From positions 761 through 64,760 of the forward strand of contig CAZNZT010000008.1 of assembly GCA_964577685.1 (NCBI GenBank): a DNA stretch of 64,000 nucleotides. The letters are read 5' to 3'. Source of the stretch: an uncultured Methanosarcinales archaeon. Lineage in GTDB: Archaea > Nanobdellota > Nanobdellia > Woesearchaeales > JACPBV01. The notes beneath the pieces were generated by a model. The model saw only the letters and a program-made list of their open reading frames with translations. It was not told the DNA's origin and ran no database searches. A program made the position numbers and the translations under genes. This document shows, in pieces, positions 7,811 through 53,228 of the stretch (positions are counted from its first letter, which is position 1; every line of letters begins with the position of its first letter).

Positions 7811-7893
7811 GCGTCGGTGGTCTAATGGATATATTACCATAAATGACAACGGCCTTCCAAGCCGTTTATCCGGGTTCAAGTCCCGGCCGACGC
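7811..7893 (+). tRNA. tRNA-Gly (anticodon UCC) carrying a roughly 12-nt insertion in the D-arm region
   Basis: Acceptor GCGTCGG/CCGACGC with discriminator A. Anticodon arm ACGGC-CTTCCAA-GCCGT. T-arm CCGGG-TTCAAGT-CCCGG. The D region is 30 nt where about 18 is expected. Confidence 0.7.
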
Positions 7894-7897
7894 ATTT

Positions 7898-19509: not shown

Positions 19510-19655
19510 TGGGGACGCCGGAATTTGAATCCGGGACACCTAGATCTCCATTCTTCATTGGCCCAAAGCCTCAACAGATCATAGGAACTTCAGTCTAGCG
19601 CTCTCCCAGGCTGAGCTACGTTTATGGTTTTGGAACAATCAATTCCAAAATCCCC
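19510..19655 (-). tRNA. tRNA-Phe (GAA) with two introns: a 30-nt intron in the acceptor stem (after nt 5) and a 42-nt canonical 37/38 intron
   Basis: Minus-strand exons: GGGGA|CG TA GCTC AGCCTGGGA GAGC G CTAGA CTGAAG|A TCTAG GTGTC CCGGA TTCAAAT TCCGG CGTCCCC A. Inserts lie at plus 19621-19650 and 19546-19587. Confidence 0.75.
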
Positions 19656-22190: not shown

Positions 22191-23234
22191 CTAAGACAAA
22201 ACAAGAATCTTTCTTGTCAAACTTTTATGAACAAATTGTGAAAATTCTTTTTTTATATTAAAACCAGCTTTTTTTACTAATTCCCTATATTTAACATAAT
22301 GAGGAAATAAAACTACTGCCCTCTTGCCTAAGATCCTTCTCAAATTTCTTAGGAATCTAAAATAAAAATTTTCTAGATTTTTTATTTTTTCATTTTTACC
22401 ATCTTGCTTCAAAGATATTTTTTTGTTTCTTCCATCCTCGCTAACCCAAATTGATGTATTCAATCCATATGGTAAATCAGTTACAACAAAATCATATCTT
22501 TTTTTTATACTGAGCGCATCTCCGTTAAATAGTCTATAATCCCTTATACCAAAAAAGTCAAGATTCACTCTCGCTCTTCTTAACATCTCATCATACAAGT
22601 CATAACCAACAGGCCTTAATCCCATCAAACCAGCTTCAATAAGAATTCCCCCGGCACCACAAAATGGGTCCATAACCTCGCCCCTAGCACCGCACAGATT
22701 AATCAAAGCTCTTGCTAATCTTGGGTCTAAGGCAGTTGGATGTTGTTCTGGTCTTTTATGTGCCCTTCTAGATTCAAAATCATGTTTTATCTCCATAATA
22801 AGTCTTGTAACATAAATCCTTTTATTCGTTGAAAAAAACTCAATTAATGTTTCTGGGTCCTTAAGATTAACCTTGGGTGTACTGAGTTGATTCCATATAA
22901 GCTCCCCAAGCTTACTCTCGCTTATTCTTTTCATAGATTTCTCCAATCTATAGAACCTCACACAAAAATTTTTTTTGTAAATGGGTTCCCAATCAAAATT
23001 TTTTATATCAGAGAACAAATCACCAAAAGTTGTTTCAAACAAAAGCCGATATATTCTCTTTGTATAAGATAATCTATTGGCTTCATCTATATTATCTGTC
23101 TCTAAGAACAACAAGTTATTAATCAACCTATACCTTGTTACATCTAACAAGGACAAAACCTCTTCTTTAGATAAATCCAGATTTTCCTTTGACAACAAAA
23201 ACACATATACCATACAGACAAAAATAAAAGACAA
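22191..23234 (-). CDS. THUMP-domain tRNA (guanine-N2)-methyltransferase (Trm11/Trm14 family)
   Basis: SAM-MTase motif I 'DPFCGAGGILIEAG' and motif IV 'VVTDLPYG'. N-terminal THUMP-like region. The true start may be the internal Met 'MVYVFLLSKEN'. Confidence 0.75.
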   Translation of the reverse strand: MSFIFVCMVYVFLLSKENLDLSKEEVLSLLDVTRYRLINNLLFLETDNIDEANRLSYTKRIYRLLFETTFGDLFSDIKNFDWEPIYKKNFCVRFYRLEKSMKRISESKLGELIWNQLSTPKVNLKDPETLIEFFSTNKRIYVTRLIMEIKHDFESRRAHKRPEQHPTALDPRLARALINLCGARGEVMDPFCGAGGILIEAGLMGLRPVGYDLYDEMLRRARVNLDFFGIRDYRLFNGDALSIKKRYDFVVTDLPYGLNTSIWVSEDGRNKKISLKQDGKNEKIKNLENFYFRFLRNLRRILGKRAVVLFPHYVKYRELVKKAGFNIKKEFSQFVHKSLTRKILVLS

Positions 23235-23311: not shown

Positions 23312-23653
23312 ATGGGAAGAGGTAGACCTCCAAAAAGCCAAATAAGACAGAATATTATTGAGATTTTATACTTCCTAAGAGAAGGATATGGATACAACAT
23401 TCATAGAATATACAACAAAATATTCCCTTCTGTCACGATGAGGGTGATATATTACCACCTCAAAAAAGGGTTAAACTTAGGTGAATTTAAAATAAAAAAA
23501 ATAGAAAAAGAAAAGGGGAACTTCTCATGGGGTTCTGAAGCTGAAAAAATTTATTATACGCTTGGAAAAGAAGCTAGACCAACCGGAAACCTAAGAGTTA
23601 AAGAGTTCCTTGAAAAAAATAAACCAGATCATCTTTCTTTTAACAAATTATAA
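23312..23653 (+). CDS. Winged helix-turn-helix DNA-binding protein (putative transcriptional regulator)
   Basis: 'IIEILYFLREGYGYNIHRIYNKIF...RVIYYHLKKGLNLGEF' fits a wHTH recognition helix plus wing. Convergent with, and 25 nt overlapping, the large Cys-rich gene. Confidence 0.45.
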   Translation: MGRGRPPKSQIRQNIIEILYFLREGYGYNIHRIYNKIFPSVTMRVIYYHLKKGLNLGEFKIKKIEKEKGNFSWGSEAEKIYYTLGKEARPTGNLRVKEFLEKNKPDHLSFNKL

Positions 23654-26600
23654 ACAAAAGAATGTTTATTTTCATTTCTTCTAATATAAGTAGTATCCTT
23701 ACATTCAATATTTATGCTTAAATCAGTAAAATTTAAAGGGATAGTTGTATTACAATAAAAAGCACCTATATCGAACTTATCAGACCCTTCACACTGACTA
23801 AATGAACCTTGCATCTTTTCAAAATGTTCTTTATCGCTTGAAAACCTACACTGCATATCATCATCAATATACATTATAAGAGTAACATTGCTAGTATTAT
23901 AATTCACAGCATAATTTGAATTCAATAAATCTCCATCGGCAGCAATAATATTTGGTGGTGTCAAATTGAAATACCTATGAAAAAGCTCCCTATTCCTACT
24001 AATACCCATATTAACTGACTTATTCATACTAAATGAAGTAGAATTGACCAAATATAACTTATATTTCCTCCTTTTGGGGGGATTATCTTTACACTTAAAA
24101 TACAACTTAAGATTATTACCAGAAAATGGAATTTCACCAGTACACTCATAGCTGCCTCCTAAAACAGGGCTTATCTTATAAGATGAAATTGGACATTCCA
24201 ATAGTCCTTGCATATAGGCATAATCCACATCATAATTACTATACCTACACTCTGATGGTTTATTTACATACAATTTAAGACTAACTTGCTTTGTATTCTT
24301 AGGTAAAATAGAATTATTCTCTGGAACTATTTTTAAAATAAGGGGTGGCTCTATATTAGCTGCCGTCCTATTAATGGTAAATTTTATAAAAAAATCCTCA
24401 GTATTCTCATTCCCTGCCATATCTTTGCACCTTACAAAAAAATAATAAGTATTTTGTTCAAAAGCAGAAAGTAAAATCCTAGACAACTCCTTGATATAAG
24501 GAAATAAATGAGAATATTTATTTACAATATTCATAACTATTGCAAAAAAGAAGTCAGCTGTGCTTAGTATGTCATTTCCTGTGAAATACTCGTATAAATC
24601 TAATTCATCCTCCAATGATGCCCTATAACTTCTATATGCAGCTTGCAAATCATCTATTATTCCGATTAAATCTACAATAGCTGTGATATTCAAATAATAG
24701 TACACCCTCTCTGGTATAACCAGACCTGCAGGCAACCTTATAGTCATATTATGAGTCAAACTAAATGTTGGCTTATCAAACCAAACAGATGGCAAAAACC
24801 GGTAGCTTATATTAGGTAAATAAGCCAACTTACATTTAGCTGGCTCGTTAGTTTTTATTCCAAATTTAAATGGCGCATATGGTTTAATGGCTGGTTCAAT
24901 CTCATAACCATCAATTGACTTATCTAGAATCTTCAACCTAGCCCTATAAGCCCTATACCCTGGGCTTAAGGCATCTGTATTAAAATCTATTTCTGGTTCT
25001 TCTTTGTCATCAGTATTAAATGGAAAACACCTACCAACACCATCAACCAGCTCAAACCTACAAAGCTGTCCTAAACTTTTACATTTATATTCCGTACATG
25101 GCTCCAAAGGATCCTCATCACATAAATAACAATCCTCACCCCCATAGGGGGCACTCCACAATGAACAAAAAGAATAGTCTAAGACCTTTATCTCGGGTGG
25201 TTCTTTAAAAGGATTAATAAAATCTGATATAGATAAATCTGAAATATAATCAAGATAATTAAAAGCAGCACTTAAAAGATAAGGTAATCTCTCCATGACC
25301 ATAGGAAATTCCACTTTTTTACTATCCCTCTTCCTCTTGTACAAATCAAGATGAAGTGGACTCCTACCTATTTCTGCTGGATTTTTATTTAATCCGTCTT
25401 GATGATAAACATAGTCTCTTACTGAATCGGTTGGATCAGAATTAAAAAAGCCTTCCTTTGTTAGTCTGTCTGCAATATTTCTATAATTACCACAATCCCC
25501 CTGAAAATAACAATACAATGCTGAATGGTCAACCCAGACATTAGGACAACTGAAATCATCACATAATGCATAATTTGTTGCTATATTACAAACCTCTTCT
25601 CCATTCCCTTCCCAAAATCTAAACCCTGGCGGAACCTTTGGGTAGCACCTAGATACATCACTATAGTCTATACCAGGGAGTGGTCTAAAAAGAAAATCTG
25701 ACCACTTACAATCTCTCACACTTGAATTTTCACAACATTCCCTTGTCTTACATAACCAGCAATCTTGCCACCTATTCGGTCTACACATGGCTTTACTTAA
25801 TCCATTTATATTCTTCTCCGTACATAATTCCTCTCTGAAATCTCTACATTCCTCAACATATTCCTTTCCATTAATGCACATATGTCTATAGTGTCTACCA
25901 CCAACATAATCCATCCCCCCATGCCCCCTCTTTGATTCCACTATACTATCATAAGCACACCATGACTCTCCATGTCTCCTTGGAGGGCCAGTAAACGACT
26001 TTGTCTCATGTTCATAAGTAGCTACACAATCCTTACAACCTCCATCTCCACATTCTCTATCGCCATAATCTAAACCGATTGCTGGACAGATACATTCTGT
26101 ATTAGGATTATAAGTCCCTCCTTTCTTCTCACACTCTTCTTTTGGTGCGTTCTTAAAACAAAATCCATCATAACTATTAAAACAACAACCATAAACCAGA
26201 CGAGTTTGCTCCAAATTGGGCAATAAGCTAACTGTATCCTCTCCCTGTAAAGCAAACAAAAATGAATAATTCTCTCTACCAATTATAGTTAATTTATAAA
26301 CTATGTCCGGGTAAGGCCTGTGTTTCTCAATCAATATATGGGCTCCATGTTTCATCATAAAATCATTCTGATCAAAAAATCCAAACTCTATTTCACTATT
26401 TACAATCTCGTTAGCAAGAGCATACAATTTTCCTAGAGGAATATCTATATTAGAACTAAACATACTTTGTTTTATCGTTGAACCAGCTTTCTTTAGTGTT
26501 ATAGGATAATCCAAGATTACTCTTACTTCTTCAACACCAATTCTGACCGTTACATTTAAAGTGCCAGTGTCTACTTTATAACCCTTTTCTCTGAAGACAT

Positions 26601-27000
26601 CAAGATTTATACAGCTCTCAAGCCCTTGCTTTATTCTATTCTGAAGCTCTTTTTCCATTTCTTGCCTTAAAAAAATAGCATTAACACAACCATGAGTATG
26701 TTGATTATAACAGAAGTACCTATATTTTTCATTGTAATACCAAACAAAATCTTTTTCTGATAAATTAAGAGTCCCTCCTTGTTCCATTAGAAGTTTAATA
26801 ATAGGATAGCTAACAATATCGATACAACTGATAACATATCTATCCAATGGCTTTTTCTCAAATCTCTTCTCATTTACTAACTCCGAATCCACCTTTACTC
26901 TTTCCAAAGAAACATTCCTGATATAATTAAGAGAAAAGAAAAATACCAACAATAGAACACCAACCAAAACAAAATAGCTTACCTGACCTCTTTTTTTCAT
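23629..27000 (-). CDS. Large (1123 aa) cysteine-rich, N-glycosylation-sequon-rich secreted/surface protein with an N-terminal signal anchor. Function unknown.
   Basis: N-terminus 'MKKRGQVSYFVLVGVLLLVFFFSL' is hydrophobic. The central ~350 aa is extremely Cys-rich (e.g. 'CICPAIGLDYGDRECGDGGCKDC', 'CWLCKTRECCENSSVRDC'). Many N-x-S/T sequons. No catalytic motif seen. Confidence 0.6.
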   Translation of the reverse strand: MKKRGQVSYFVLVGVLLLVFFFSLNYIRNVSLERVKVDSELVNEKRFEKKPLDRYVISCIDIVSYPIIKLLMEQGGTLNLSEKDFVWYYNEKYRYFCYNQHTHGCVNAIFLRQEMEKELQNRIKQGLESCINLDVFREKGYKVDTGTLNVTVRIGVEEVRVILDYPITLKKAGSTIKQSMFSSNIDIPLGKLYALANEIVNSEIEFGFFDQNDFMMKHGAHILIEKHRPYPDIVYKLTIIGRENYSFLFALQGEDTVSLLPNLEQTRLVYGCCFNSYDGFCFKNAPKEECEKKGGTYNPNTECICPAIGLDYGDRECGDGGCKDCVATYEHETKSFTGPPRRHGESWCAYDSIVESKRGHGGMDYVGGRHYRHMCINGKEYVEECRDFREELCTEKNINGLSKAMCRPNRWQDCWLCKTRECCENSSVRDCKWSDFLFRPLPGIDYSDVSRCYPKVPPGFRFWEGNGEEVCNIATNYALCDDFSCPNVWVDHSALYCYFQGDCGNYRNIADRLTKEGFFNSDPTDSVRDYVYHQDGLNKNPAEIGRSPLHLDLYKRKRDSKKVEFPMVMERLPYLLSAAFNYLDYISDLSISDFINPFKEPPEIKVLDYSFCSLWSAPYGGEDCYLCDEDPLEPCTEYKCKSLGQLCRFELVDGVGRCFPFNTDDKEEPEIDFNTDALSPGYRAYRARLKILDKSIDGYEIEPAIKPYAPFKFGIKTNEPAKCKLAYLPNISYRFLPSVWFDKPTFSLTHNMTIRLPAGLVIPERVYYYLNITAIVDLIGIIDDLQAAYRSYRASLEDELDLYEYFTGNDILSTADFFFAIVMNIVNKYSHLFPYIKELSRILLSAFEQNTYYFFVRCKDMAGNENTEDFFIKFTINRTAANIEPPLILKIVPENNSILPKNTKQVSLKLYVNKPSECRYSNYDVDYAYMQGLLECPISSYKISPVLGGSYECTGEIPFSGNNLKLYFKCKDNPPKRRKYKLYLVNSTSFSMNKSVNMGISRNRELFHRYFNLTPPNIIAADGDLLNSNYAVNYNTSNVTLIMYIDDDMQCRFSSDKEHFEKMQGSFSQCEGSDKFDIGAFYCNTTIPLNFTDLSINIECKDTTYIRRNENKHSFVYNLLKER

Positions 27001-29143: not shown

Positions 29144-29256
29144 TAGCGGAGGATGGATTTGAACCATCGACCTATGGGTCTCTGAGGCAATTTCCGAGCC
29201 TTATGAGCCCATCGGGCATACAGGCCTTAATGGTCTCCTGGCTGCCCCACTCCGCT
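29144..29256 (-). tRNA. tRNA-Met (CAU), initiator-like (A1:U72, GGG/CCC anticodon stem), with two introns: about 17 nt in the D-loop and 22 nt at the canonical 37/38 site
   Basis: Minus strand: AGCGGAG TG GGGC [AGCCAGG..insert..TAT] GCCC G ATGGG CTCATA|AGGCTCGGAAATTGCCTCAGAG|A CCCAT AGGTC GATGG TTCAAAT CCATC CTCCGCT A. Confidence 0.7.
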
Positions 29257-29370
29257 ATTAACAAAGACAGAAAAGAATTATTATTTATAAAACTATTGGA
29301 AATAGCCATATAAAATCTTAACGAAAAGTTTTAAATAGTCACAAAAAATTCTAAACAAGTATGCAAGTAT

Positions 29371-29518
29371 GCCGCGGTGGCACAACATAGAGTGGTGCTT
29401 CCATTTTATGTGCAATCTGGTACTGCGCGAGATTGCTAAGCACAACTAAGTGCTTATGATTCCTCCGCAGATATCTCGTGTCCGAAAGGACTTCTGGGTT
29501 CAAATCCCAGCCGCGGCG
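29371..29518 (+). tRNA. tRNA-Ser (GCU), 148 nt: a 34-nt canonical intron plus a roughly 28-nt insertion in the D-arm region. Long variable arm.
   Basis: GCCGCGG ... CGAGA TTGCTA|AGCACAACTAAGTGCTTATGATTCCTCCGCAGAT|A TCTCG TGTCCGAAAGGACTT CTGGG TTCAAAT CCCAG CCGCGGC G. Two D-arm-like hairpins (GCAC..GTGC and GCA ATCTGGTAC TGC) show that extra sequence was inserted 5' of the anticodon stem. Confidence 0.65.
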
Positions 29519-29580
29519 TTTTTTGAAAAACTACTTAGGTAACAAAAAACTTATAAACAAAAAATATTAATTCTATAAAA

Positions 29581-38418: not shown

Positions 38419-39840
38419 CTAATTAGAAGAGTATCTCAAATCCGGATTTCTAGCAGCTCTAACAGCATCTAATCTACCAACTGGCATACTAAACGGAGCA
38501 TTATGTAATAGTTCTGGTTTATTCTCAGCCTCAGCCCTAATCTTCCCCATTACCCTGATAAAATAATCCAATGTTTCTTTGCTTTCAGTTTCAGTAGGTT
38601 CTATCATCATGGCTCCATGAACAATTAGCGGAAAATATATTGTCATAGGATGTATTCCATAATCAATCAATCTTTTGGCTATATCTGTGGTAGTAACACC
38701 ATTAGGTAAAGCTTCATCACTTAAGACAAATTCATGTTTACATAAGGAATTATAAGGAAGCACATAAACGTCCTTTAATTTCTCTTTTAGGTAGTTTGCA
38801 TTCAAAACAGCATTTTCTGCAACTTTTCTTAAACCATCCGAACCAACAGCCCTAATATAAGAATAGGCTTTCACCGTAACACCAAAATTACCATAAAAAG
38901 ACTTTACCTTCCCAATTGATTTGGGGTTATTAATAAGATTATATTTGCCTTCTTTAAATATAATCCTCGGATTAGGTAAAAATCTTTCTAAGGTCTTTAC
39001 AACACCTACTGGCCCAGAACCAGGACCCCCACCACCATGTGGAGTTGAAAAGGTTTTATGGAGATTTAGGTGGATAATATCTATTCCCATATCTGCTGGT
39101 TTCGTTACACCTAGAAGAGCATTCATATTTGCTCCATCCATATAAACTAGACTTCCATTTTTGTGCATAATCTTTGTTATTTCTAATATATGCTCTTCAA
39201 ATATACCCAAGGTGTTTGGTATTGTTAACATTATAGCTGCAACATCTTTGTTGATAATCTTTTTCAATTCATCCAAGTCAATTTGTCCTTTATCGTTACT
39301 TTTTAAGGTCATATTCCTAAAACCACACATAGTAGAAGATGCAGGATTTGTCCCATGAGAGCTATCTGGTGTGATTATTATTTTCCTGTCTTCCCCTTTT
39401 TCATTAAAATATGCTTTTATAATCATGAGTCCTGTTAATTCGCCATGTGCTCCTGCAGCAGGTTGTAAAGTGAAAGCGTCCATCCCAGTAATCTCACATA
39501 ACATATTCTCGAGTTCATACATCAATCGCAAACAACCCTGCGCATTCGGCTGTAATGGATGACACTCAACGAAGCCCTCTAATTTAGCAATATCTTCATT
39601 TATCTTAGGGTTATACTTCATAGTGCAAGAACCAAGTGGATAGAAACCATTATCAACCCCAAAATTTCTTCTTGACAACTCTATATAATGCCTTATCAAT
39701 GTTACCTCATCAACCTCTGGTAATTCTAATTCATCTCTTAAATTATCTTTACTTATTATACCATCTCTTTTAGGAACATCCAACTCTGGTAAAGAAACTC
39801 CTATCCTACCTGCTCTGCTTTTTTCAAATATCAATTGCAT
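38419..39840 (-). CDS. gcvPB: Glycine dehydrogenase (decarboxylating) subunit 2
   Basis: PLP-lysine region 'IIHLNLHKTFSTPHGGGGPG'. 473 aa. Confidence 0.9.
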   Translation of the reverse strand: MQLIFEKSRAGRIGVSLPELDVPKRDGIISKDNLRDELELPEVDEVTLIRHYIELSRRNFGVDNGFYPLGSCTMKYNPKINEDIAKLEGFVECHPLQPNAQGCLRLMYELENMLCEITGMDAFTLQPAAGAHGELTGLMIIKAYFNEKGEDRKIIITPDSSHGTNPASSTMCGFRNMTLKSNDKGQIDLDELKKIINKDVAAIMLTIPNTLGIFEEHILEITKIMHKNGSLVYMDGANMNALLGVTKPADMGIDIIHLNLHKTFSTPHGGGGPGSGPVGVVKTLERFLPNPRIIFKEGKYNLINNPKSIGKVKSFYGNFGVTVKAYSYIRAVGSDGLRKVAENAVLNANYLKEKLKDVYVLPYNSLCKHEFVLSDEALPNGVTTTDIAKRLIDYGIHPMTIYFPLIVHGAMMIEPTETESKETLDYFIRVMGKIRAEAENKPELLHNAPFSMPVGRLDAVRAARNPDLRYSSN

Positions 39841-41159
39841 TTTCTTATTATTTCAACAAGCCTGTCCATCTCCTCTTTTGTATTTAACTCGGTAACACAA
39901 AACAACAAACAATTATTTAGCTCTGGATAATAAACACCAATATCTAATCCCCCAAGTATACCACTATCCAAGAGCTTTTTACTAACAGTTTTAGCATCTT
40001 TTACCTTCACTAAAAACTCATTGTAAAATTCTTGTTCAAAAACTATACTACAACCTATTTCCTCCAATCTATCAGCCAAATAATGTGCCTTATATAAACA
40101 CAACTCAGCAAGTTTTCTTAACCCATTTTTTCCAAGAGCAGAAAGATAAACAGTAGCAGCCAAAGCACATAATGCCTCATTACTACATATATTTGAAGAG
40201 GCTCTCTCTCTTCTTATATGCTGTTCCCTAGCCTGTAAGGTCAGTATATATCCAATATTACCGTTTCCATCTGTTGTCTTACCAACTAACCTTCCAGGAA
40301 GCTGTCTTAGATATCTATGTTTTGTAGCCATAATACCCAAATATGGTCCTCCAAAGCTAACTGGATTACCAAGGCTTTGTCCTTCACCAACCACAATATC
40401 AGAATGCTCTCCAGGAGGTTTTAATATACCCAAAGAAGTTGGTTCAATAACACATACATTTAACAAACTTCCATTCCTATGTAGAATATCAGAGATTCCT
40501 CTAAGATTTTCTACACAACCAAAAAAATTAGGTTGCTGTAATAAAAGGGTGGCTGTCCTTTTGTTTATCTTTAATTTTAAATCATCTATAGAAGTTACTC
40601 CATCAGAATAATCCACTTCTACAAATTTAAGGTTATGTGCCCAACAGTAAGTTTTTACAACCTGTCTATAGTCTGGATGTATGGCTCTAGACACAAGTAT
40701 TTCATTTCTCTTTGTAATATTTGAAGCCATTATACAGCTCTCAGCCAAGGCTGTTGCACCGTCATATAATGAAGCATTTGAGACATCCATACCAAATAAA
40801 TTACATATCATTGTTTGATACTCGTATATAGCTTGCAATATCCCCTGAGACATCTCAGGCTGATATGGGGTGTAAGTAGTATAAAATTCACTTCTAGCTA
40901 CAATATGCTTCACAACAGAAGGGATAAAATGTTTATATGCACCAGCTCCAATAAAGTAAGAGAAATCTACTTTATTCATCTTACTTATCCCCTTCAACAA
41001 TTCAAATAATCCGACCTCAGACATAGAAGCTGGAATCTTTAGTTTATCCTTTAAAATAATCCTATCAGGTATATCCCTAAATAACTCGGATATGCTCTTT
41101 AATCCAATTTCTTTGAGCATTGCTTCTCTATCCTTATTAGTATTAGGAATAAAATCCAT
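39831..41159 (-). CDS. gcvPA: Glycine dehydrogenase (decarboxylating) subunit 1
   Basis: 'YTPYQPEMSQGILQAIYEYQTMICNLFGMDVSNASLYDGATA', typical of the GcvPA N-terminus. Overlaps gcvPB by 10 nt. Confidence 0.9.
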   Translation of the reverse strand: MDFIPNTNKDREAMLKEIGLKSISELFRDIPDRIILKDKLKIPASMSEVGLFELLKGISKMNKVDFSYFIGAGAYKHFIPSVVKHIVARSEFYTTYTPYQPEMSQGILQAIYEYQTMICNLFGMDVSNASLYDGATALAESCIMASNITKRNEILVSRAIHPDYRQVVKTYCWAHNLKFVEVDYSDGVTSIDDLKLKINKRTATLLLQQPNFFGCVENLRGISDILHRNGSLLNVCVIEPTSLGILKPPGEHSDIVVGEGQSLGNPVSFGGPYLGIMATKHRYLRQLPGRLVGKTTDGNGNIGYILTLQAREQHIRRERASSNICSNEALCALAATVYLSALGKNGLRKLAELCLYKAHYLADRLEEIGCSIVFEQEFYNEFLVKVKDAKTVSKKLLDSGILGGLDIGVYYPELNNCLLFCVTELNTKEEMDRLVEIIRKCN

Positions 41160-41172
41160 ATTACACCCAAGG

Positions 41173-41574
41173 TTATTTGTGCTCCTTTAAGAAATTTTCA
41201 TATTCTTCAGCACTCATTAGTCTTTCTATCTCTTCCTTATTCTCAATCTTTAACTTCACAATCCATCCTTTCCCGTATGGATCCTGATTGATAATTTCTG
41301 GCTTTTCTCCAAGTTCATTATTCACTTCTAAAACCTCTCCACTAACTGGAGAAAAAACATCTGAAACAGATTTTACACTTTCAATTGTAGCTATTTGTTT
41401 GCCCTGCTCTACTCTCTTACCTTTTTCTGGCAACTCAACAAACACAATATCTGTAAGTTGTTTCTGAGCAAAATCAGTTATGCCTACTATTCCTATATCC
41501 TGTTCTATCCTAATCCACTCATGCTCTTTTGTATACTTCAATTCTCTTGGATTTTCCATATTACCACCCCACAC
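41173..41574 (-). CDS. gcvH: Glycine cleavage system H protein
   Basis: Lipoyl-lysine block 'IATIESVKSVSDVFSPVSGEV'. Confidence 0.9.
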   Translation of the reverse strand: MWGGNMENPRELKYTKEHEWIRIEQDIGIVGITDFAQKQLTDIVFVELPEKGKRVEQGKQIATIESVKSVSDVFSPVSGEVLEVNNELGEKPEIINQDPYGKGWIVKLKIENKEEIERLMSAEEYENFLKEHK

Positions 41575-41589
41575 AAAACCACTCAGTTA

Positions 41590-42702
41590 TTATTTATTAA
41601 GTTTTCCTTTATACTTATAAAACGGTCTTTCAACAATCTTAGCTTTATGCAGTTCTCCCCTTATTTTAATCTCAATCAAACTCCCAACATCAGCTTCAGC
41701 AATATCAAGGATAGCTAAACCAATTGGTTTTTTAAAAGTAGGGGAAAACGTTCCTGAGGTGACTAATCCTATCTTTCTATTATTCTTAAAGACATCATAG
41801 TTAAATCTGGGAATGGCTTTGTCTAAAAGCTCAAACGGAACAACAATCCTTTTTAGATCCCTCTTGGCTTCCAAAAGTGCTTCCTTACCTATAAAATCCT
41901 TAGAAAAATCAACAACAAACCCTATTCCTGCTTCAAAAGGATTTATATTTTCATTAAGCTCATGCCCGTAGAGACTATAACAAGCCTCTATTCTTAATGT
42001 ATCTCTTGCTCCAAGGCCAACAGGTTTTAATCCTAAATCTTTTCCACACTTTAGAAGCCTATTCCACACATCAATGGCTCTCCCTGAGTTAAAATATATC
42101 TCAAACCCATCCTCAGCTGTATAGCCTGTTCTTGATATCACAAAATTTTCATTGAAAAAAAATTTTTCAATAAAATCAAATCTCTTCAACAAAGAAAAAT
42201 CAAAATCAAAACTATCATTGATTATCTGTTCAGAAAAAGGTCCTTGTAAATCTATCTTCGCTATGTTATTGCTTATATTAATAATAGTAACATCATCAAA
42301 AAAATCCTTATTCTTCATAAGCCAACCAAAGTCCTTGTCAACATTACTCGCGTTTACAACCAGCATAAATTTTTTATCATTAAATTTATAAACAAATAAA
42401 TCATCAATAACACCACCCATCGGATTGCATAAACAACAATAAAAAGACTTATTACAATCAAACTTACTTATGTCTCTTGTTACCATTTTTTGCAAAAAAT
42501 CATGAGCTCTCTCACCTTCAACAAGAATCTCACCCATATGGGAAACATCAAAGAGTCCTGCTTTATTTCTTGTTGTATTATGTTCTTCAATAATACTCGT
42601 ATAAGAAACAGGCATTAGCCATCCACCGAACTCTATAATTCTTGCTCCAAGTTTTAAATGTAAGTCGTACAGTGGTGTTTTCTTTAAATCAGGCATAAAC
42701 AA
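41590..42702 (-). CDS. gcvT: Aminomethyltransferase (glycine cleavage system T protein)
   Basis: 'KKTPLYDLHLKLGARIIEFGGWLMPVSY' N-terminus and GcvT folate-binding domain. Confidence 0.9.
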   Translation of the reverse strand: MFMPDLKKTPLYDLHLKLGARIIEFGGWLMPVSYTSIIEEHNTTRNKAGLFDVSHMGEILVEGERAHDFLQKMVTRDISKFDCNKSFYCCLCNPMGGVIDDLFVYKFNDKKFMLVVNASNVDKDFGWLMKNKDFFDDVTIINISNNIAKIDLQGPFSEQIINDSFDFDFSLLKRFDFIEKFFFNENFVISRTGYTAEDGFEIYFNSGRAIDVWNRLLKCGKDLGLKPVGLGARDTLRIEACYSLYGHELNENINPFEAGIGFVVDFSKDFIGKEALLEAKRDLKRIVVPFELLDKAIPRFNYDVFKNNRKIGLVTSGTFSPTFKKPIGLAILDIAEADVGSLIEIKIRGELHKAKIVERPFYKYKGKLNK

Positions 42703-42807: not shown

Positions 42808-43509
42808 ATGATAAGCGTTATCCTAATAGAACCAGAAAATCCAGGAAACATAGGGGCTATTGCAAGAGTAATGAAAAATTTTAATTTTAAGGATTTAATT
42901 CTAATCAATCCAAAATGCAATCATTTATCAAAAGAAGCACAGGATAGAGCAACACATGCAAAAAAAATACTAAAAAAAGCAAAAACAAAACCAATCTCTT
43001 ACCTAAGAGGCTTTGATTATATAATCGCCACAACAGCAAAACTAGGAACTGACTTCAATATAGCAAGGCAGCCTATAAGCCCAAAAGACTTAGCACGAAA
43101 GCTAGAAAAAATAAACAAAAACATGAAAATAGGCCTAATGTTTGGCAGAGAAGGAACAGGCTTAAGAAACAAAGAAATTTTAATGTCAGATTTTGTTGTT
43201 ACAATCAACACATCCAAAGAATATCCAACCATGAATATAAGTCATGCAGTAGCTATTGTGTTATATGAAATATTTCAAATATCAAAACAAAAGAAGATAA
43301 ATCAGCATATTCTTTTTGCAAAGAAAAAAGAGAAAGAGAACATATTAAAACTTCTAAATGAGATATTAAATAGGCTTAATTTTAAAACAGAATCAAAAAA
43401 GAAAACCCAGGTATTAGTCTGGAAAAGAGTCTTAAATAAAGCATTCCTAACGAAAAGAGAAGCATATGCCATATTCGGGTTCCTGAGAAAGTTGGAAAAG
43501 TTTAAATAA
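42808..43509 (+). CDS. SPOUT-class RNA 2'-O-methyltransferase (TrmJ/TrmH-like)
   Basis: 'ISVILIEPENPGNIGAIARVMKNFNF' N-terminus like TrmJ. Knot region 'GLMFGREGTGLRN' and 'NISHAVAIVLYEI'. Confidence 0.7.
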   Translation: MISVILIEPENPGNIGAIARVMKNFNFKDLILINPKCNHLSKEAQDRATHAKKILKKAKTKPISYLRGFDYIIATTAKLGTDFNIARQPISPKDLARKLEKINKNMKIGLMFGREGTGLRNKEILMSDFVVTINTSKEYPTMNISHAVAIVLYEIFQISKQKKINQHILFAKKKEKENILKLLNEILNRLNFKTESKKKTQVLVWKRVLNKAFLTKREAYAIFGFLRKLEKFK

Positions 43510-48390: not shown

Positions 48391-49398
48391 TTATCTTTTT
48401 TTAAAGAGGTTTCTTATTTCTTCGCCGGTTATCTCAATTTGATGTTTTCCAATTTTTTCTCTGCTTTCCTTTAAAAAAGGCATTCCTTTTTTGTATTCTT
48501 CAACCCACTCCTTAGCAAATTCTCCACTCTCTATTTTCCTTAACGCCTCCTTCATCCTCTCTTTAACATCTTCCCCTATAATCCTATGTCCGACAGCCCA
48601 CATTCCATACTCTGCTGTATTGCTAATAACCTCTGCCATTCTTTTAATTCCTCCTTCCCATATAAGATCCACAATAAGTTTCATTTCATGCACGCACTCA
48701 AAGTACGCCATCTCTGGAGGATAACCAGCTTCTACCAAAACCTCAAAACCATTTTTCATTAATTCAACTAGACCTCCACATAAAACACACTGTTCACCAA
48801 ATAAATCCTCATATGTTTCCTGCTCAAAGGTACACTCCAGAACGCCTGCTTTTGTAAAATGCATAGCCTTAGCCAATGCTAAAGCCATTTCTCTCGCTTT
48901 TCCAGAAGCATTTTGGTAAACTGCAACTAGTGCTGGAACACCAAAACCTTCAAGATAGGCTTTTCTTTCTTCTGTTCCTGGAGCTTTTGGTGCAACCATG
49001 ATAACATCCACATCACTCGGAGGTATTATTCTCTTAAAACAAATATTAAAACCATGGGAAAAATAAAGCGTCTTTCCTGCTTTTACATAAGGCTTGATTT
49101 GATTTTCATAAATATCTGGTTGAACTTCATCCGGCAAAAGGATTTGGATAATATCAGCTTTTTCTGCGGCCTTGTCTATTGAAAATACCTCAAACCCATC
49201 TTCCTTTGCTTTATTCCAACTAGGATTTTGTTTCCCACCTATAACCTCCGTTTCTCCAATTATTACACTAACCCCAGAATCTCTAAGCATATTTGCTTGG
49301 GCAGACCCCTGTGCTCCGTAACCAATAGTTGCAACCACTTTACCCTTTAAAATACCTTCATCTATATCTTCATCATACAATACTTTCATAACAACCAA
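48391..49398 (-). CDS. ilvC: Ketol-acid reductoisomerase
   Basis: NADPH Rossmann '[21 protein letters not shown]'. '[39 protein letters not shown]'. Confidence 0.9.
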
Positions 49399-49601
49399 CC
49401 CCCTAGACTATTTGATTTTTTATTAAAAATTTTCTATTAGAGGTAATCATACTCCATTTATAAATATTGCTCTTACTTAAATCTCTCAAGGACATCTTCA
49501 CCCGCCATTCCTTTCCTAACACCTAGCTCTTTTGCTCCTGTTGGCTTTTGTTGAAACACCACAAAAACAAATCCCCCTAACAATCACTTTTTCTACTTTT
49601 A

Positions 49602-50729
49602 TCATTTTAATTTTTTTATTATAGCATCCCCCATTTCAGAAGTCTTCGCTGTCCCACCAAGGTCTTTTGTTTTCACTTTCCCTTCTTTTAAAACTTCTTC
49701 TATTGCTCTAATTACCTGCTTAGCTGATTCCTCCTCTCCAAGTTCTTCTAACATCATAGAACCAGCCCAAATTGTTGCTATTGGATTTGCTATACCTTTT
49801 CCCTTATATTTTGGAGCAGAACCATGTATTGGCTCAAACATTGAAATACCATCTGGGTTAATATTTCCTCCAGGAGCAAGTCCTAATCCACCCTGAATCA
49901 TAGCACCGAGGTCTGTTATTATGTCCCCGAACATATTTGGAGTCACAATCGTTTGAAACCATTCTGGATTTTTAACAAACCACATAGTTATAGCATCAAC
50001 AAAATTAAACTCATAATTTATCCCGGGATAATCCCTAGCAACTTCTTCTAAAATCTCACGCCAAAAAGAATAAACATAATCTAAAACATTTGCCTTATCA
50101 ACAGATGTAAGTTTATCCCTCTTCTTCCTCTTTGTTAATTCAAAAGCATATTTTATAACCCTCTTTGCTCCTTCTCTACTTATAACCCCAATCTGATATG
50201 CTATCTCTGAACCCTGTGTATCTATATCCAATCCAAATTTTATTTTATAAAGACTCCTTACTATTTCAAGTTCTTGTTTCGATTTTCCTATTTTGGCTCT
50301 ATTTCCAATACCGACATAAAAGTCTTCTGTATTCTCTCTAACTACATCAAAGTTTATATCAGTAGGCCCTTTATCTCTCAACGGAGTTTTAACCCCCCCT
50401 AATAGCCTCACAGGCCTTAGATTAATAAATTGATCAAAATAAAATCTCATCTTAAGTAAAATCCCCTTCTCTAGAATTCCTGGCTTAACCCTAGGATCGC
50501 CCAAAGCACCTAAGTAAATAGCATTACATTTCTGTTCAATCTCTTTTAGGGTTTCTTCCGTTATAAGTTCTCCTGTCTTTAAATATTTCTCTGCCCCATT
50601 ATCATATTCCCTCCATTCAATATCAAAACCATTAAGATCAGCTACTCTTTCTATTACCTTAACTCCTTCTGCTATTATCTCTGGACCTATACCATCCCCC
50701 GGAATTAAAGCAATTCTATATTTTTTCAT
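49602..50729 (-). CDS. leuB: 3-isopropylmalate dehydrogenase (isocitrate/isopropylmalate DH family)
   Basis: '[15 protein letters not shown]', 'NLRPVRLL', '[26 protein letters not shown]'. Operon context with leuCD. Confidence 0.8.
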
Positions 50730-51213
50730 ATTGAGTCTTTATATAGTTTAACAAACCTCCTGCCTTTATAATATCCAAAGCAAATTTAGGAAAAGGATTA
50801 AATTTAAATTCTTTCCCATTATTCAAATTTTTTATTATTCCCCTCCTTAAATCGATTTCTAAATTATCTCCATCATTGACTTTATTTACAACATCCTTAC
50901 ACTCTATGGCCAAAAATCCATTGTTAATAGCATTCCTAAAAAATATCCTTGCAAAACTTTTAGCAATTACTGCACTTATACCAGCTCCCTTCAAAGCCCA
51001 TACGGCGTGCTCTCTAGAAGAACCACAACCAAAATTTTCACCAACAACGATAAAATCTCCCTTACTAACTTTTTTAACAAAATCCCTATCCAAATCCTCC
51101 ATAGCATGTTTTGCAAGTTCTTCCTCTTTATCTATATTCAAATATCTAGCAGGGATTATCTCATCAGTATTTATATGATCCTTCTTATAAACATGTGCTT
51201 TACCTTTCATCAT
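50716..51213 (-). CDS. leuD: 3-isopropylmalate dehydratase small subunit
   Basis: '[22 protein letters not shown]', '[17 protein letters not shown]'. Overlaps the leuB start by 14 nt and the leuC stop by 4 nt. Confidence 0.8.
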
Positions 51214-52469
51214 AAGTACTCCCTCGGGTCAGTAATTTTTCCTTCTATGGCTGAGGCCGCTACTGTTGCAGGACTAGCCAAATATACCTTAGAATCTGGA
51301 TGACCCATTCTCCCAGTAAAATTTCTATTGGTTGAACTAATACAAACCTCTCCCTCAGCTAAAATACCCATATGACCACCCAAACAAGCCCCACATGTTG
51401 GAGTTGAAACTACTGCACCAAACTCTATAAATATGTCTATCAGGCCTTCCTTATTTGCTTGCTTCCATATCTCTGTTGTCGCAGGAACTATAATCATTCT
51501 TGTCCCTTTCGCTATTTTATTTCCATCTAAAATTGAAGCAGCAATCCTCAAGTCTTCAATTCTTCCATTCGTACAGCTTCCTAGATATGCTTGATCTATC
51601 TTAATATTCTTAATCTTAGAAATAGGAACCCCATTACTTGGCAAATTAGGAAAAGCCACAATAGGTTCTAAATCGGATATATCATACTCCTTAATCTCTC
51701 TATACACAGCATCTTTATCTGATTTAAACATTTCAAATTTTTCTTTTGTTCTTTCTTTAACATACTCCAAAACTTTTTTATCTGGTTCCATTATACCAGA
51801 TTTAGCACCTGCTTCTATTGCCATATTTGTTATTGTCATCCTAGCTTCTACCGAAAGTTGCTTTACGACCTCTCCAGTAAATTCCATAGCTTTGTATAAT
51901 GCCCCATCTACCCCAATATCTGATAATATGTGTAATATAATATCTTTTGAATAAACACCTTCAGGTACCTTTCCATCCAATACGAACTTTATTGACTCAG
52001 GAACCCTAAACCACAGCTTGCCAGTAGCAATAGCTGCAGCTATATCAGTCGAACCAACCCCTGTTGAGAATGCTCCAAAAGCACCATATGTACATGTATG
52101 AGAATCTGCTCCAACAATCAAACTACCAGGTACCACATACCCTTGCTCTGGCAATAGAGCATGGCATATTCCATGATTACCCACCTCATAATAATTCCTG
52201 ATATGAAACTCCTCAACCCATTTTCTTAATCTTTTGGTTAATTGTGCTGACTTTATATCCTTATTAGGCACAAAATGATCAGGTGTAACAACTATCTTAT
52301 CAGGATTAAACGCTTTCTTAATACCAAACTTATAAAGCATATCTATAGCCGGAGGAGTAGTTACATCATGACAGACTATTACATCAATATCTGCATTAAT
52401 TAATTCTCCAGGCTTGACTTTATCCTTATTCGCGTGTTTTGCAAGTATTTTCTCTGTTATTGTTTGCAT
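51210..52469 (-). CDS. leuC: 3-isopropylmalate dehydratase large subunit (aconitase family)
   Basis: '[11 protein letters not shown]', '[11 protein letters not shown]', '[11 protein letters not shown]', Fe-S ligands '[11 protein letters not shown]' and '[10 protein letters not shown]'. Confidence 0.85.
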
Positions 52470-52471
52470 TT

Positions 52472-52744
52472 TTAACCAAACTTATAATATTTTTTTACGG
52501 GCTTATTAATTTTCCATTTACATTTTAAGCCTCTAGGGAAAACAACTAAATCTCCTTTTCCAAACTTCACATGCTCGCCATCCTCTGTTATTACTTCAAC
52601 ATCTCCCTCAATTAGTAAACAAGTTTCCTTCTCATCGTACTCCCACGGAAACTCTGAAATCCCTTTCTCCCATATACCCCATGATTTTGCTTCTTCTTTT
52701 TCTTTTTCAGTTGGTTTTCTTACTTCTATCCTCACCAAAATCAC
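52472..52744 (-). CDS. Small cupin-fold protein embedded in the leu/ilv operon
   Basis: 90 aa. '[31 protein letters not shown]' is a cupin beta-barrel motif pair. Translationally coupled on both sides. Confidence 0.5.
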
Positions 52745-53226
52745 CCCCTAGATATAGCAGTTACGCCAGTTCTAGATATTTCTCTTATCCCAAATTGCTT
52801 CATTAATTCAATAAAAGCATCAATCTTAGCAGGAACACCTACTAATTCCGCTGTTACAGACTTAGGAGTTATATCTACAATCTTTGTCTTATATATTTTA
52901 GTATAACGTAAAATATCCTCTTTTGCTTTCTTATTAGGTATGGCTATCTTAACTAAACAAAGTTCTCTTATAACTGATCTTTCCTCCGGCATTTCTATAA
53001 CTTTTATCGTATTTATTAACTTATTAATTTGTTTTTTAACTTGCTCAACTGTTTTATCATCACCAAAAACAGTAATTACCATCTTTGATATTCCAGGGGT
53101 TATTGTCTTGCCAACAGTAATCGTATCTATGTTAAAGCCCCTCCTAGCAAACATACCTGCTATTTTTGTCAACACACCAGGTTGATCTTCAACAAGCATA
53201 GCTATAACATTCCTTCTTTCCTTCAT
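52741..53226 (-). CDS. ilvN: Acetolactate synthase small (regulatory) subunit, ACT domain
   Basis: 'RNVIAMLVEDQPGVLTKIAGMFARRGFNIDTITVG' (IlvH/IlvN ACT signature). Confidence 0.8.
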   Translation of the reverse strand: MKERRNVIAMLVEDQPGVLTKIAGMFARRGFNIDTITVGKTITPGISKMVITVFGDDKTVEQVKKQINKLINTIKVIEMPEERSVIRELCLVKIAIPNKKAKEDILRYTKIYKTKIVDITPKSVTAELVGVPAKIDAFIELMKQFGIREISRTGVTAISRG

Positions 53227-53228
53227 TT

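Follow-up and report, generated by a model that had tools for sequence, protein, structure and literature searches.

A predicted D-loop intron and an anticodon intron in a tRNA-Ser(GCU) gene of a Woesearchaeota/Nanoarchaeota-type archaeon

How does a locus whose acceptor stem, anticodon stem, variable arm, and T arm are those of a serine tRNA yield a functional molecule if its D-arm is broken by an insertion? This question is raised by 148 nt at positions 29371 to 29518 (plus strand) of the 64,000-nt stretch of archaeal DNA that we analyzed, hereafter called the window. The original prediction described the locus as a tRNA-Ser(GCU) gene with a 34-nt anticodon intron and a D-arm insertion carrying a duplicated hairpin, and interpreted the latter as a sign of intron gain by local duplication. 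We find that the insertion is better explained as a second intron.

Inspection of the sequence reveals an acceptor stem (GCCGCGG/CCGCGGC) with the discriminator G73, a T arm (CTGGG-TTCAAAT-CCCAG), and, as was recognized at the outset, a clear anticodon stem (CGAGA/TCTCG, enclosing the loop TTGCTA..A) and a long variable arm (TGTCCGAAAGGACTT). The MFE of the 148-nt stretch is −65.1 kcal/mol (z = −6.2 relative to dinucleotide shuffles), which indicates structure well beyond chance. ARAGORN makes no call at the locus with default settings. Intron-aware prediction, which had been suggested as a check, was misleading when applied directly: the intron option of ARAGORN reports a tRNA-Ile(tat) with a 74-nt intron, an assignment that we rejected because it ignores both the long variable arm and the GCU loop. 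The Rfam tRNA model recovers only the T arm (13 bits), even at E ≤ 10, and Rfam matches to SNORA25, mascRNA, and HtrA at the locus were dismissed as noise.

The gene becomes recognizable once two short introns, one in the D-loop and one in the anticodon loop, are taken out of the sequence. Removal of nucleotides 29386-29415 and 29439-29472 leaves 84 nt that ARAGORN identifies as tRNA-Ser(gct) with a full cloverleaf, in agreement with the identity first assigned to the locus, and the MFE fold of this spliced product is likewise the cloverleaf. When only the first intron is removed, ARAGORN locates unaided exactly the 34-nt anticodon intron that had been proposed. We consider it likely, with a probability of roughly 0.87, that the locus is a functional gene for tRNA-Ser(GCU), that it belongs to a Woesearchaeota/Nanoarchaeota-type (DPANN) archaeon, and that it carries two protein-spliced archaeal introns. 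The predicted organization of the locus is as follows.

29330..29337, plus strand: TATA-box-like element (TTTAAATA), a putative archaeal promoter, 34-41 nt upstream of tRNA position 1
29371..29385, plus strand: exon 1, tRNA positions 1-15 (from in-silico splicing and ARAGORN; the same as in uninterrupted orthologues)
29386..29415, plus strand: intron 1, a predicted 30-nt non-canonical BHB intron in the D-loop at 15/16 (CATAGAGTGGTGCTTCCATTTTATGTGCAA)
29416..29438, plus strand: exon 2, tRNA positions 16-37 (from in-silico splicing and orthologue comparison)
29439..29472, plus strand: intron 2, 34 nt at the canonical position 37/38 (AGCACAACTAAGTGCTTATGATTCCTCCGCAGAT; from ARAGORN, the BHB frame, and homologous introns)
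29473..29518, plus strand: exon 3, from A38 to the discriminator G73 (from sequence and in-silico splicing)
29519..29524, plus strand: T6 run directly after the discriminator base, a probable transcription terminator
56802-58052: gene for a class I CCA-adding enzyme

Exon 1 comprises the acceptor 5′ strand GCCGCGG, U8, G9, the D-stem 5′ strand GCAC, A14, and A15. Exon 2 comprises the remainder of the D-loop (UCUGGUA), the D-stem 3′ strand CUGC, G26, CGAGA, and UU-GCU-A, and exon 3 provides A38, the 3′ strand of the anticodon stem, the variable arm, the T arm, the acceptor 3′ strand, and G73. After splicing, the D-arm reads GCAC-AAUCUGGUA-CUGC and has A14, A15, G18, G19, and A21 in place, and the loop UUGCUAA, G73, and the variable arm UGUCCGAAAGGACUU are those of a class II tRNA-Ser. 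CCA is not encoded in the gene. The TATA-like element together with the T6 run is consistent with an expressed gene, and a similar element, TTTAAA(A), precedes orthologous tRNA-Ser genes by a comparable distance (L007, L008, L012, L013, L015, L018, L019, and L020).

To place the boundaries of the D-loop intron, all splice placements were evaluated against BHB geometry, wherein a 4-bp helix is combined with 3-nt bulges on opposite strands and each cut falls after the second bulge nucleotide. Since both junctions bear the repeat CAA, the mature sequence is identical for four boundary placements. The frames at 12/13, 13/14, and 14/15 form 1 to 3 of the 4 central-helix pairs and were rejected. The frame p15/q46 alone provides a complete central helix (4/4 pairs, all Watson-Crick) with the bulges AAC and AAT, a 9-bp inner helix, and an outer helix of only 1 bp. 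The 5′ strand of its central helix is the 5′ strand of the D-stem. Its elements are as follows.

29380-29383 and 29410-29413, plus strand: central BHB helix, GCAC paired with GTGC (from folds and the frame test)
29384-29386 and 29414-29416, plus strand: bulges, AAC and AAT (from folds and the frame test)
29387-29395 and 29401-29409, plus strand: inner helix of 9 bp (ATAGAGTGG/CCATTTTAT)

This helix-bulge-helix is contained in both the unconstrained MFE and centroid folds, whether of the precursor or of the isolated region. Among 100,000 shuffles of the 30-nt insert, the complete central helix (4/4) arose in the required frame in 1%, and no shuffle combined it with an inner helix of at least 9 bp. 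A strict hBHBh′ motif has outer and inner helices of at least 2 bp each. Intron 1 has h′ = 9 bp and h = 1 bp, and the near absence of its outer helix makes it a motif of the relaxed HBh′ type. By its predicted geometry, the D-arm insertion is a second BHB intron, non-canonical and located in the D-loop at 15/16.

This result changes how the hairpins near the D-arm are to be read. The insertion described in the original prediction is real, but it is a 30-nt BHB intron and not a duplicated D-arm. Similarly, the two alternative D-arm-like hairpins that had been pointed out, GCAC (29380-83)-N11-GTGC (29395-98) and GCA-ATCTGGTAC-TGC (29412-26), are both present, but neither is the D-arm, whose two halves, GCAC-AA and UCUGGUA-CUGC, are separated by the intron. 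The first GCAC (29380-83) is the true D-stem strand, and in the modeled precursor it is held by the GUGC at the end of the intron and not by the GTGC located 11 nt downstream. If the second hairpin is taken as the D-arm, ARAGORN accepts the resulting 82-nt tRNA, but this product lacks C13 and A14 and is contradicted by the uninterrupted D-arm of related genes.

Indeed, alignment with related tRNA-Ser genes, which had been recommended as a means to define the exon boundaries, is informative in this respect. With the T-arm/acceptor sequence, 17 loci were found in a set comprising one genome for each prokaryotic species, nearly all of them in MAGs of Candidatus Woesearchaeota or Nanoarchaeota, and a scan of metagenomes with the exon 2 pattern returned at least 119 loci. 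For the segment spanning the D-arm and anticodon stem, 116 of the 124 matches listed from DPANN genomes and metagenomes carry the uninterrupted D-arm GGCACAAYCTGG, continuous across GGCACAA/YCTGG (with the slash marking the junction), which fixes the exon junction of intron 1. Of the remaining eight, two come from the contig itself (the window and L001), two have an insertion at this very junction (L006, of 41 nt, and L044, of 49 nt), and four were left unscored: two on contigs that are short upstream, one with a variant D-arm sequence, and one unrelated chance match. The insertions in L006 and L044 have the form GCACAA/...G(T/C)GCAA/YCTGG and the same BHB frame as in the window. Their central helices form 4/4 pairs in L006 and 3/4 pairs, with an A.C mismatch, in L044, where the inner helix extends to 15 bp. 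Presence and absence of intron 1 among the orthologues are therefore precise at the predicted junction. Among the matches listed, the exon sequences agree with those of about 100 orthologous Ser(GCU) genes, and 97 unique orthologues are near-identical to the spliced tRNA.

Among the matches listed, the relative closest to the window's gene is L044, which has the same anticodon stem and a homologous anticodon intron of 33 nt. The 3′ 17 nt of its D-loop intron are homologous to those of the window (p ~0.005). In a hand alignment of the two, the first inner pair differs by a compensatory double change (A-U to G-C), and the L044 intron has one extra base pair inserted. This partial homology with a preserved helix indicates that the D-loop intron was inherited, and its structure maintained, in the clade comprising L044 and the window. 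Across the three lineages in which 15/16 is occupied, the D-loop introns have largely different sequences. Such introns are rare, being present in 3 of the 97 unique orthologues among the matches listed. Of this set, 49 genes are intronless, 34 contain a single intron, 12 contain two, and 2 contain three; the sites used are the anticodon loop (in 39 genes), position 59/60 of the T-loop (in 16), and position 15/16 of the D-loop (in 3).

The genomic setting agrees with these assignments. In many related loci the order RNase HII, a small S30AE-like ORF, tRNA-Ser, a transglutaminase-like gene, and a cation-efflux gene is conserved, which indicates that the tRNA-Ser of the window is the orthologous copy at its usual place. 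The transglutaminase-like protein shares no more than 56% identity with its nearest homologues, which, where named, belong to Woesearchaeota or Nanoarchaeota. Of the contigs of the closest of these, L140, L141, and L144 carry no tRNA upstream, and L142 and L143 have the tRNA without a D-loop intron. A search of viral contigs for further orthologues with a D-loop intron produced one chance match in a GC-rich coding region. Besides the CCA-adding enzyme, eRF1, aIF5A, and archaeal Nre are encoded in the window, and the GC content of the host is low, about 33%. From these nearest neighbors, we infer that the host is a DPANN archaeon of the Woesearchaeota/Nanoarchaeota group without a close sequenced relative. 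The contig that carries the window is 65,009 nt long, and its DNA also occurs in ENA ERZ27248458 (k141_654912) and JGI 3300021467.

Intron 2 has a central helix formed by TTGC (29433-36) and GCAG (29467-70), with 4/4 pairs including one G.U, and the bulges TAA (29437-39) and ATA (29471-73). Its outer helix is the anticodon stem (h = 5 bp, extendable to 8), and it contains an internal hairpin formed by GCAC (29440-43) and GTGC (29450-53). Because h′ is 1 bp with this local hairpin adjoining, the motif departs from strict hBHBh′ and is hBH-like; in the shuffle control, 2% of sequences had the central helix alone. Both introns of the gene are thus relaxed motifs, which form a recognized subclass. 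Introns homologous to intron 2 occur in L044, L114, L026, L036, L042, L061, L079, and others. The arrangement GCAC-loop-GTGCTT is the 5′ hairpin of this family of anticodon introns, found in at least 20 unique orthologous genes, and its stem covaries among them (AGCAC/GTGCT, AGTAC/GTGCT, GAAAC/GTTTC, TCGGC/GCCGG, and GGTAC/GTACT). We also considered whether the conserved UUAUGAUUAC in the anticodon intron could be a box C/D or k-turn motif, but set this aside because, judged by eye, its GA/AG arrangement does not suit such a motif.

The window contains three other tRNA genes, which are interrupted in a similar manner.

29144-29256, minus strand: initiator tRNA-Met, with a 16-nt D-loop intron and a 22-nt intron at 37/38
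19510-19655, minus strand: tRNA-Phe(GAA), with a 30-nt acceptor-stem intron at 4/5 and a 42-nt intron at 37/38
7811-7894, plus strand: tRNA-Gly(UCC), with a 12-nt D-loop intron

These are BHB introns, and splicing of the three genes in silico yields clean tRNAs. The intronless initiator tRNA-Met of L142 has the D-arm GGGCAGTCAGGAGTGCCC, which confirms the junction predicted for the initiator tRNA-Met of the window. In the 4/5 intron of tRNA-Phe, the BHB helix makes use of two leader nucleotides. Overall, all four tRNA genes of the window have non-canonical introns, with seven introns in total, and neither ARAGORN with default settings nor Rfam calls any of the four correctly. Default ARAGORN misses three, including the initiator tRNA-Met, and miscalls the fourth, tRNA-Gly(UCC), as Tyr(ata). 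The intron option adds only wrong calls, at the Ser and initiator Met genes, the latter being reported as Tyr(gta). Rfam at its gathering threshold gives one partial match, to tRNA-Phe, covering only model positions 5-66. The fact that every tRNA gene of the window is interrupted suggests that interruption is the normal state of this genome.

The proposed route to the mature tRNA-Ser begins with a rearranged precursor. In this model, GCAC (positions 10-13) would pair with GUGC at the 3′ end of intron 1 instead of with its mature partner CUGC, generating a 4-bp central helix, the bulges A14-A15-C and A-A-U16, and the 9-bp inner hairpin. A second motif would form at 37/38 from the central helix UUGC/GCAG, with the anticodon stem as its outer helix. 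EndA would then cleave at all four bulges, releasing three exons for an RtcB-type ligase to assemble into an 84-nt class II tRNA. The D-stem would form after ligation, and CCA would subsequently be added by the enzyme encoded at 56802-58052. Given the 1-bp outer helix of the D-loop motif, a strict alpha4/alpha′2-type enzyme is not expected to cut it, and by analogy with characterized enzymes the host EndA presumably accepts relaxed BHB motifs. EndA was absent from the 37 window ORFs scanned with Pfam, a set that excludes about ten large ORFs and, except for three near the locus, those below 110 aa. The MFE fold of the whole precursor pairs the 3′ half of the D-arm with the 3′ part of intron 2 and has no anticodon-stem BHB; a model with the cloverleaf and two BHB motifs scores −52.0 kcal/mol versus −65.1 kcal/mol for that fold.

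Two other readings of the gene itself have to be weighed against this one. The locus might be a decaying or disrupted pseudogene, with an intact tRNA-Ser(GCU) elsewhere in a genome of which the window presents 64 kb, and the failure of default ARAGORN and Rfam to call it would fit such a state. We regard this as very improbable, since the stems, the identity elements (G73 and the long variable arm), and the conserved loop bases are all intact after splicing, both inserts keep BHB geometry, the orthologue occupies a conserved syntenic position, a TATA-like box and a T-run are present, and the three other tRNA genes of the window are interrupted in the same way. Retention of the 30-nt insert in the mature tRNA as an enlarged D-arm is hardly credible: the D-stem strand would be sequestered, A14 and A15 would be parted from the G18 and G19 with which they are needed for the tertiary fold, and neither the exact BHB geometry of the insert nor its precise absence from 116 of the 124 matches listed would be expected. 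A functional gene with two introns thus remains the reading that we prefer.

How the D-loop intron arose is a separate matter. GTGCTT does recur in the anticodon intron as had been observed, at 29395-29400 and 29450-29455, and the view that local duplication of D-arm or intron sequence produced the insertion and left behind a duplicated hairpin and this repeat could also draw on GCACAAC at 29380-86 and 29440-46, on the CAA repeated at both junctions of the D-loop intron, and on a local alignment of exon 1 plus intron 1 with intron 2 (p ~0.02 relative to shuffles). The alignment signal, however, stems from the exon bases GCACAA, which all orthologues possess; intron 1 alone shows no significant similarity to intron 2 (p = 0.18 and 0.14). 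The GCAC-loop-GTGCTT hairpin is conserved and covarying, and of the 20 orthologues listed with it, the D-loop intron is present in two (the window and L044) and absent in about 17, with one contig too short upstream. In intron 1, GTGCTT lies in a hairpin loop, a structurally non-equivalent place, and the D-loop introns of L006 and L044 lack it. The terminal G(T/C)GCAA is accounted for by pairing with GCAC and by bulge formation. The occurrence of the hairpin family in orthologues without a D-loop intron leaves gain by local duplication unsupported, and we judge it improbable. The repeat instead reflects two unrelated constraints, namely a conserved hairpin in an old anticodon intron and the requirement that the D-loop intron terminate in a sequence complementary to GCAC. 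A different origin, compatible with the two-intron gene, is that intron 1 was acquired by a mechanism of the kind described by Fujishima 2010. Such mechanisms are documented elsewhere (Fujishima 2010, cited in PMC4090602; PMC3293823), the intron content of Ser(GCU) genes is highly dynamic across relatives (0/1/2/3 introns in 49/34/12/2 of the genes listed), and 15/16 is filled by largely different sequences in three lineages. We nonetheless hold this origin to be rather unlikely, as intron 1 has no significant similarity to the six other introns of the window, and no recombinase or element adjoins the tRNA-Ser gene. None of the 21 pairwise comparisons among the seven window introns is significant after correction for multiple testing; that between the first intron of tRNA-Phe and the intron of tRNA-Gly reflects a shared 3′ end, ACCATAA, only (p = 0.017 in 21 tests). 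The lack of resemblance between any two introns leaves transposition from the visible genes unsupported.

The two-intron organization has counterparts in known systems. Multi-intron tRNA genes occur in Thermoproteales, other Crenarchaeota, Nanoarchaeota, and ARMAN-2, where a canonical 37/38 intron and a non-canonical intron can likewise share one gene, relaxed HBh′ and hBH motifs are seen, intron positions vary between close relatives, and standard tRNA finders miss the genes (PMC4090602, PMC3239211). Studies named in connection with archaeal multi-intron tRNAs include Marck and Grosjean 2003, Sugahara 2007/2008, and Fujishima 2011. The present case differs in its low-GC DPANN host, for which ARMAN-2 is a further DPANN precedent (PMC3239211), and in the use of site 15/16 in the D-loop of tRNA-Ser(GCU). 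In the text of reviews, full position tables aside, 20/21, 22/23, 25/26, and others are given as non-canonical sites, and 15/16 is not among them. The intron transposition described for Thermoproteales (Fujishima et al. 2010) resembles what is seen here in that non-canonical sites are occupied repeatedly and introns are gained and lost rapidly among relatives, but the near-identical introns that define it, located at distinct sites or in distinct genes, were looked for in the window and not found.

The nearest parallel in structure is the pre-tRNA-Glu(UUC) of Methanopyrus kandleri (Kaneta et al. 2018, PMC5829648), which also combines an HBh′ D-loop intron with a strict or near-strict 37/38 intron, although the tRNA, the phylum, and the D-loop position (ending before A21) are different. 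In that study, EndA of broad specificity efficiently cleaved relaxed HBh′ D-loop introns accompanying a canonical intron, strict enzymes cleaved them poorly, removal of the canonical intron tended to come first, and the EndA of M. kandleri cut its own D-loop intron poorly (PMC5829648). In DPANN lineages, EndA was reported to be of the alpha4 form with an additional L3 loop, many of the tRNA genes to be disrupted, and the predicted tRNA sets to be incomplete (PMC5829648). The survey included one Woesearchaeota and one Pacearchaeota genome and reported more disrupted tRNA genes; the window, in which four of four tRNA genes are interrupted, is a concrete example of this pattern. By the same analogy, the tRNAs of the window may be processed by an EndA with the L3 loop.

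The phenomenon is therefore already known, and the lineage has previously been reported to have disrupted tRNA genes. The annotation of the locus should be corrected to an ordinary two-intron tRNA-Ser(GCU) gene, which does not constitute evidence of intron birth by duplication. It also illustrates in detail how standard finders overlook tRNA genes in DPANN MAGs, and hidden genes of this type bear on claims of missing tRNAs in reduced genomes. The locus predicts that the splicing endonuclease of the host accepts relaxed BHB motifs, and it offers a concrete HBh′ substrate for examining the specificity of DPANN EndA. In a 2026 survey of Nanobdellota based on tRNAscan-SE, all 20 tRNA types were recovered in only 96 of 208 complete genomes. 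It is conceivable, at somewhat less than even odds, that essentially every tRNA gene is interrupted in this Woesearchaeales-like lineage. If this holds genome-wide, hidden genes with several introns, instead of losses or split genes, would account for the "missing" tRNAs reported for many complete Nanobdellota genomes, and EndA, presumably the alpha4 form with the L3 loop, would have to handle relaxed HBh′ substrates as a matter of routine. The Ser(GCU) gene, whose intron hot spots at 15/16, 37/38, and 59/60 are gained and lost among the orthologues listed, would then be a good natural system for the study of tRNA intron turnover, with about 100 lineages sampled.

One family of introns at 37/38 of tRNA-Ser(GCU) has two elements in common, a 5′ hairpin whose stem covaries and, after it, the conserved single-stranded motif UU(A/U)(U/A)GAUUAC(C); outside these elements the introns are variable. 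Its members include the intron in the window (29439-29472) and those at the matching loci L044, L114, L026, L036, L042, L061 and L079, as well as L038, L048, L050, L124 and others. When the motif was inspected by eye, neither a box C/D nor a k-turn reading fit. In the minimum free energy (MFE) fold, the UU that follows the hairpin is paired to A37 and to the intron's first base, an arrangement in which the 5′ splice site would be buried.

The unconstrained MFE fold of the tRNA-Ser precursor departs from the tRNA-like model. Nucleotides 29419-29427, which constitute the 3′ half of the D-arm (GGUACUGCG), pair with nucleotides 29466-29475, where the anticodon intron ends and exon 3 begins. This pairing replaces the anticodon-stem bulge-helix-bulge (BHB). 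The predicted energy of the fold is -65.1 kcal/mol, against -52.0 kcal/mol when the precursor is given the tRNA-like structure. The interaction may be an artefact of the folding, or it may belong to a competing conformation of the precursor.

Further insertions occur among the tRNA-Ser loci related to the gene in the window. A T-loop intron of 29-88 nt is present at 59/60 in 16 of the 97 unique Ser(GCU) orthologues among the matches listed (L026, L036, L044, L062, L069, L079, L088, L092, L094, L109, L113, L120, L133 and others). Nearly every one of these introns ends in TTGAAAG, and this terminus provides the TGAA strand that pairs with the TTCA of the T-loop. Locus L004 carries an extra insertion of about 44 nt where the variable arm meets the T-stem, and loci L010 and L142 have an intron within the 5′ strand of the anticodon stem. 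In the Woesearchaeota MAG WALR01, the tRNA-Ser genes with UGA and CGA anticodons, L005 (about 4738, minus strand) and L012 (about 1886), each have 17 nt of their 5′ end (CATGCCGCGGTCGCATA) repeated 45 nt upstream. These copies are not BHB introns; they look like the duplicated tRNA 5′ fragments left by integrating elements.

The three other tRNA genes in the window and their predicted introns are as follows.

29144-29256, minus strand: initiator tRNA-Met(CAT), with A1-U72 and anticodon stem AUGGG/CCCAU; two introns
29219-29234, minus strand: its D-loop intron, 16 nt, helix CAGG/CCTG, bulges AGA/TAT
29180-29201, minus strand: its 37/38 intron, 22 nt, one C.C mismatch in the central helix
19510-19655, minus strand: tRNA-Phe(GAA); two introns
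19622-19651, minus strand: its acceptor-stem intron at 4/5, 30 nt, central BHB helix GTGG/CCAT
19546-19587, minus strand: its 37/38 intron, 42 nt
7811-7894, plus strand: tRNA-Gly(UCC); one mini-intron
7831-7842, plus strand: its D-loop mini-intron, 12 nt, helix ATGG/CCAT, bulges ATA/AAA

The initiator tRNA-Met gene lies 114 bp from tRNA-Ser in divergent orientation, and its D-loop junction is confirmed by an intronless orthologue at locus L142. The Tyr(gta) assignment that ARAGORN gives this gene when introns are allowed is a miscall, as is the default ARAGORN label of tRNA-Tyr(ata) for the tRNA-Gly(UCC) gene. The acceptor-stem intron of tRNA-Phe draws two nucleotides of its central BHB helix from the 5′ leader, so splicing would need to come before RNase P cleavage or be independent of it. 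In the 37/38 intron of the same gene, only three of the four central-helix pairs form, two of them G.U. The acceptor-stem intron shares the 3′ end ACCATAA with the tRNA-Gly mini-intron, a similarity (p = 0.017) that is not significant given the 21 tests.

Among its protein-coding genes, the window has a THUMP-methyltransferase at 22191-23234 and a SpoU methylase at 42808-43509. Pfam returned no match for two large ORFs, 23629-27000 (minus strand, 1123 aa) and 634-2418 (minus strand, 594 aa); homologues of the 1123-aa protein, 34-40% identical, adjoin tRNA-Ser at loci L004, L016 and L021. The regions 38419-42702 and 48391-54944 hold glycine cleavage system genes (P1, P2, H and T) together with genes for branched-chain amino acids (ketol-acid reductoisomerase, isopropylmalate dehydrogenase, aconitase-type large and small subunits, and the acetolactate synthase small subunit). 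The biosynthetic capacity of the contig exceeds the usual descriptions of DPANN archaea.
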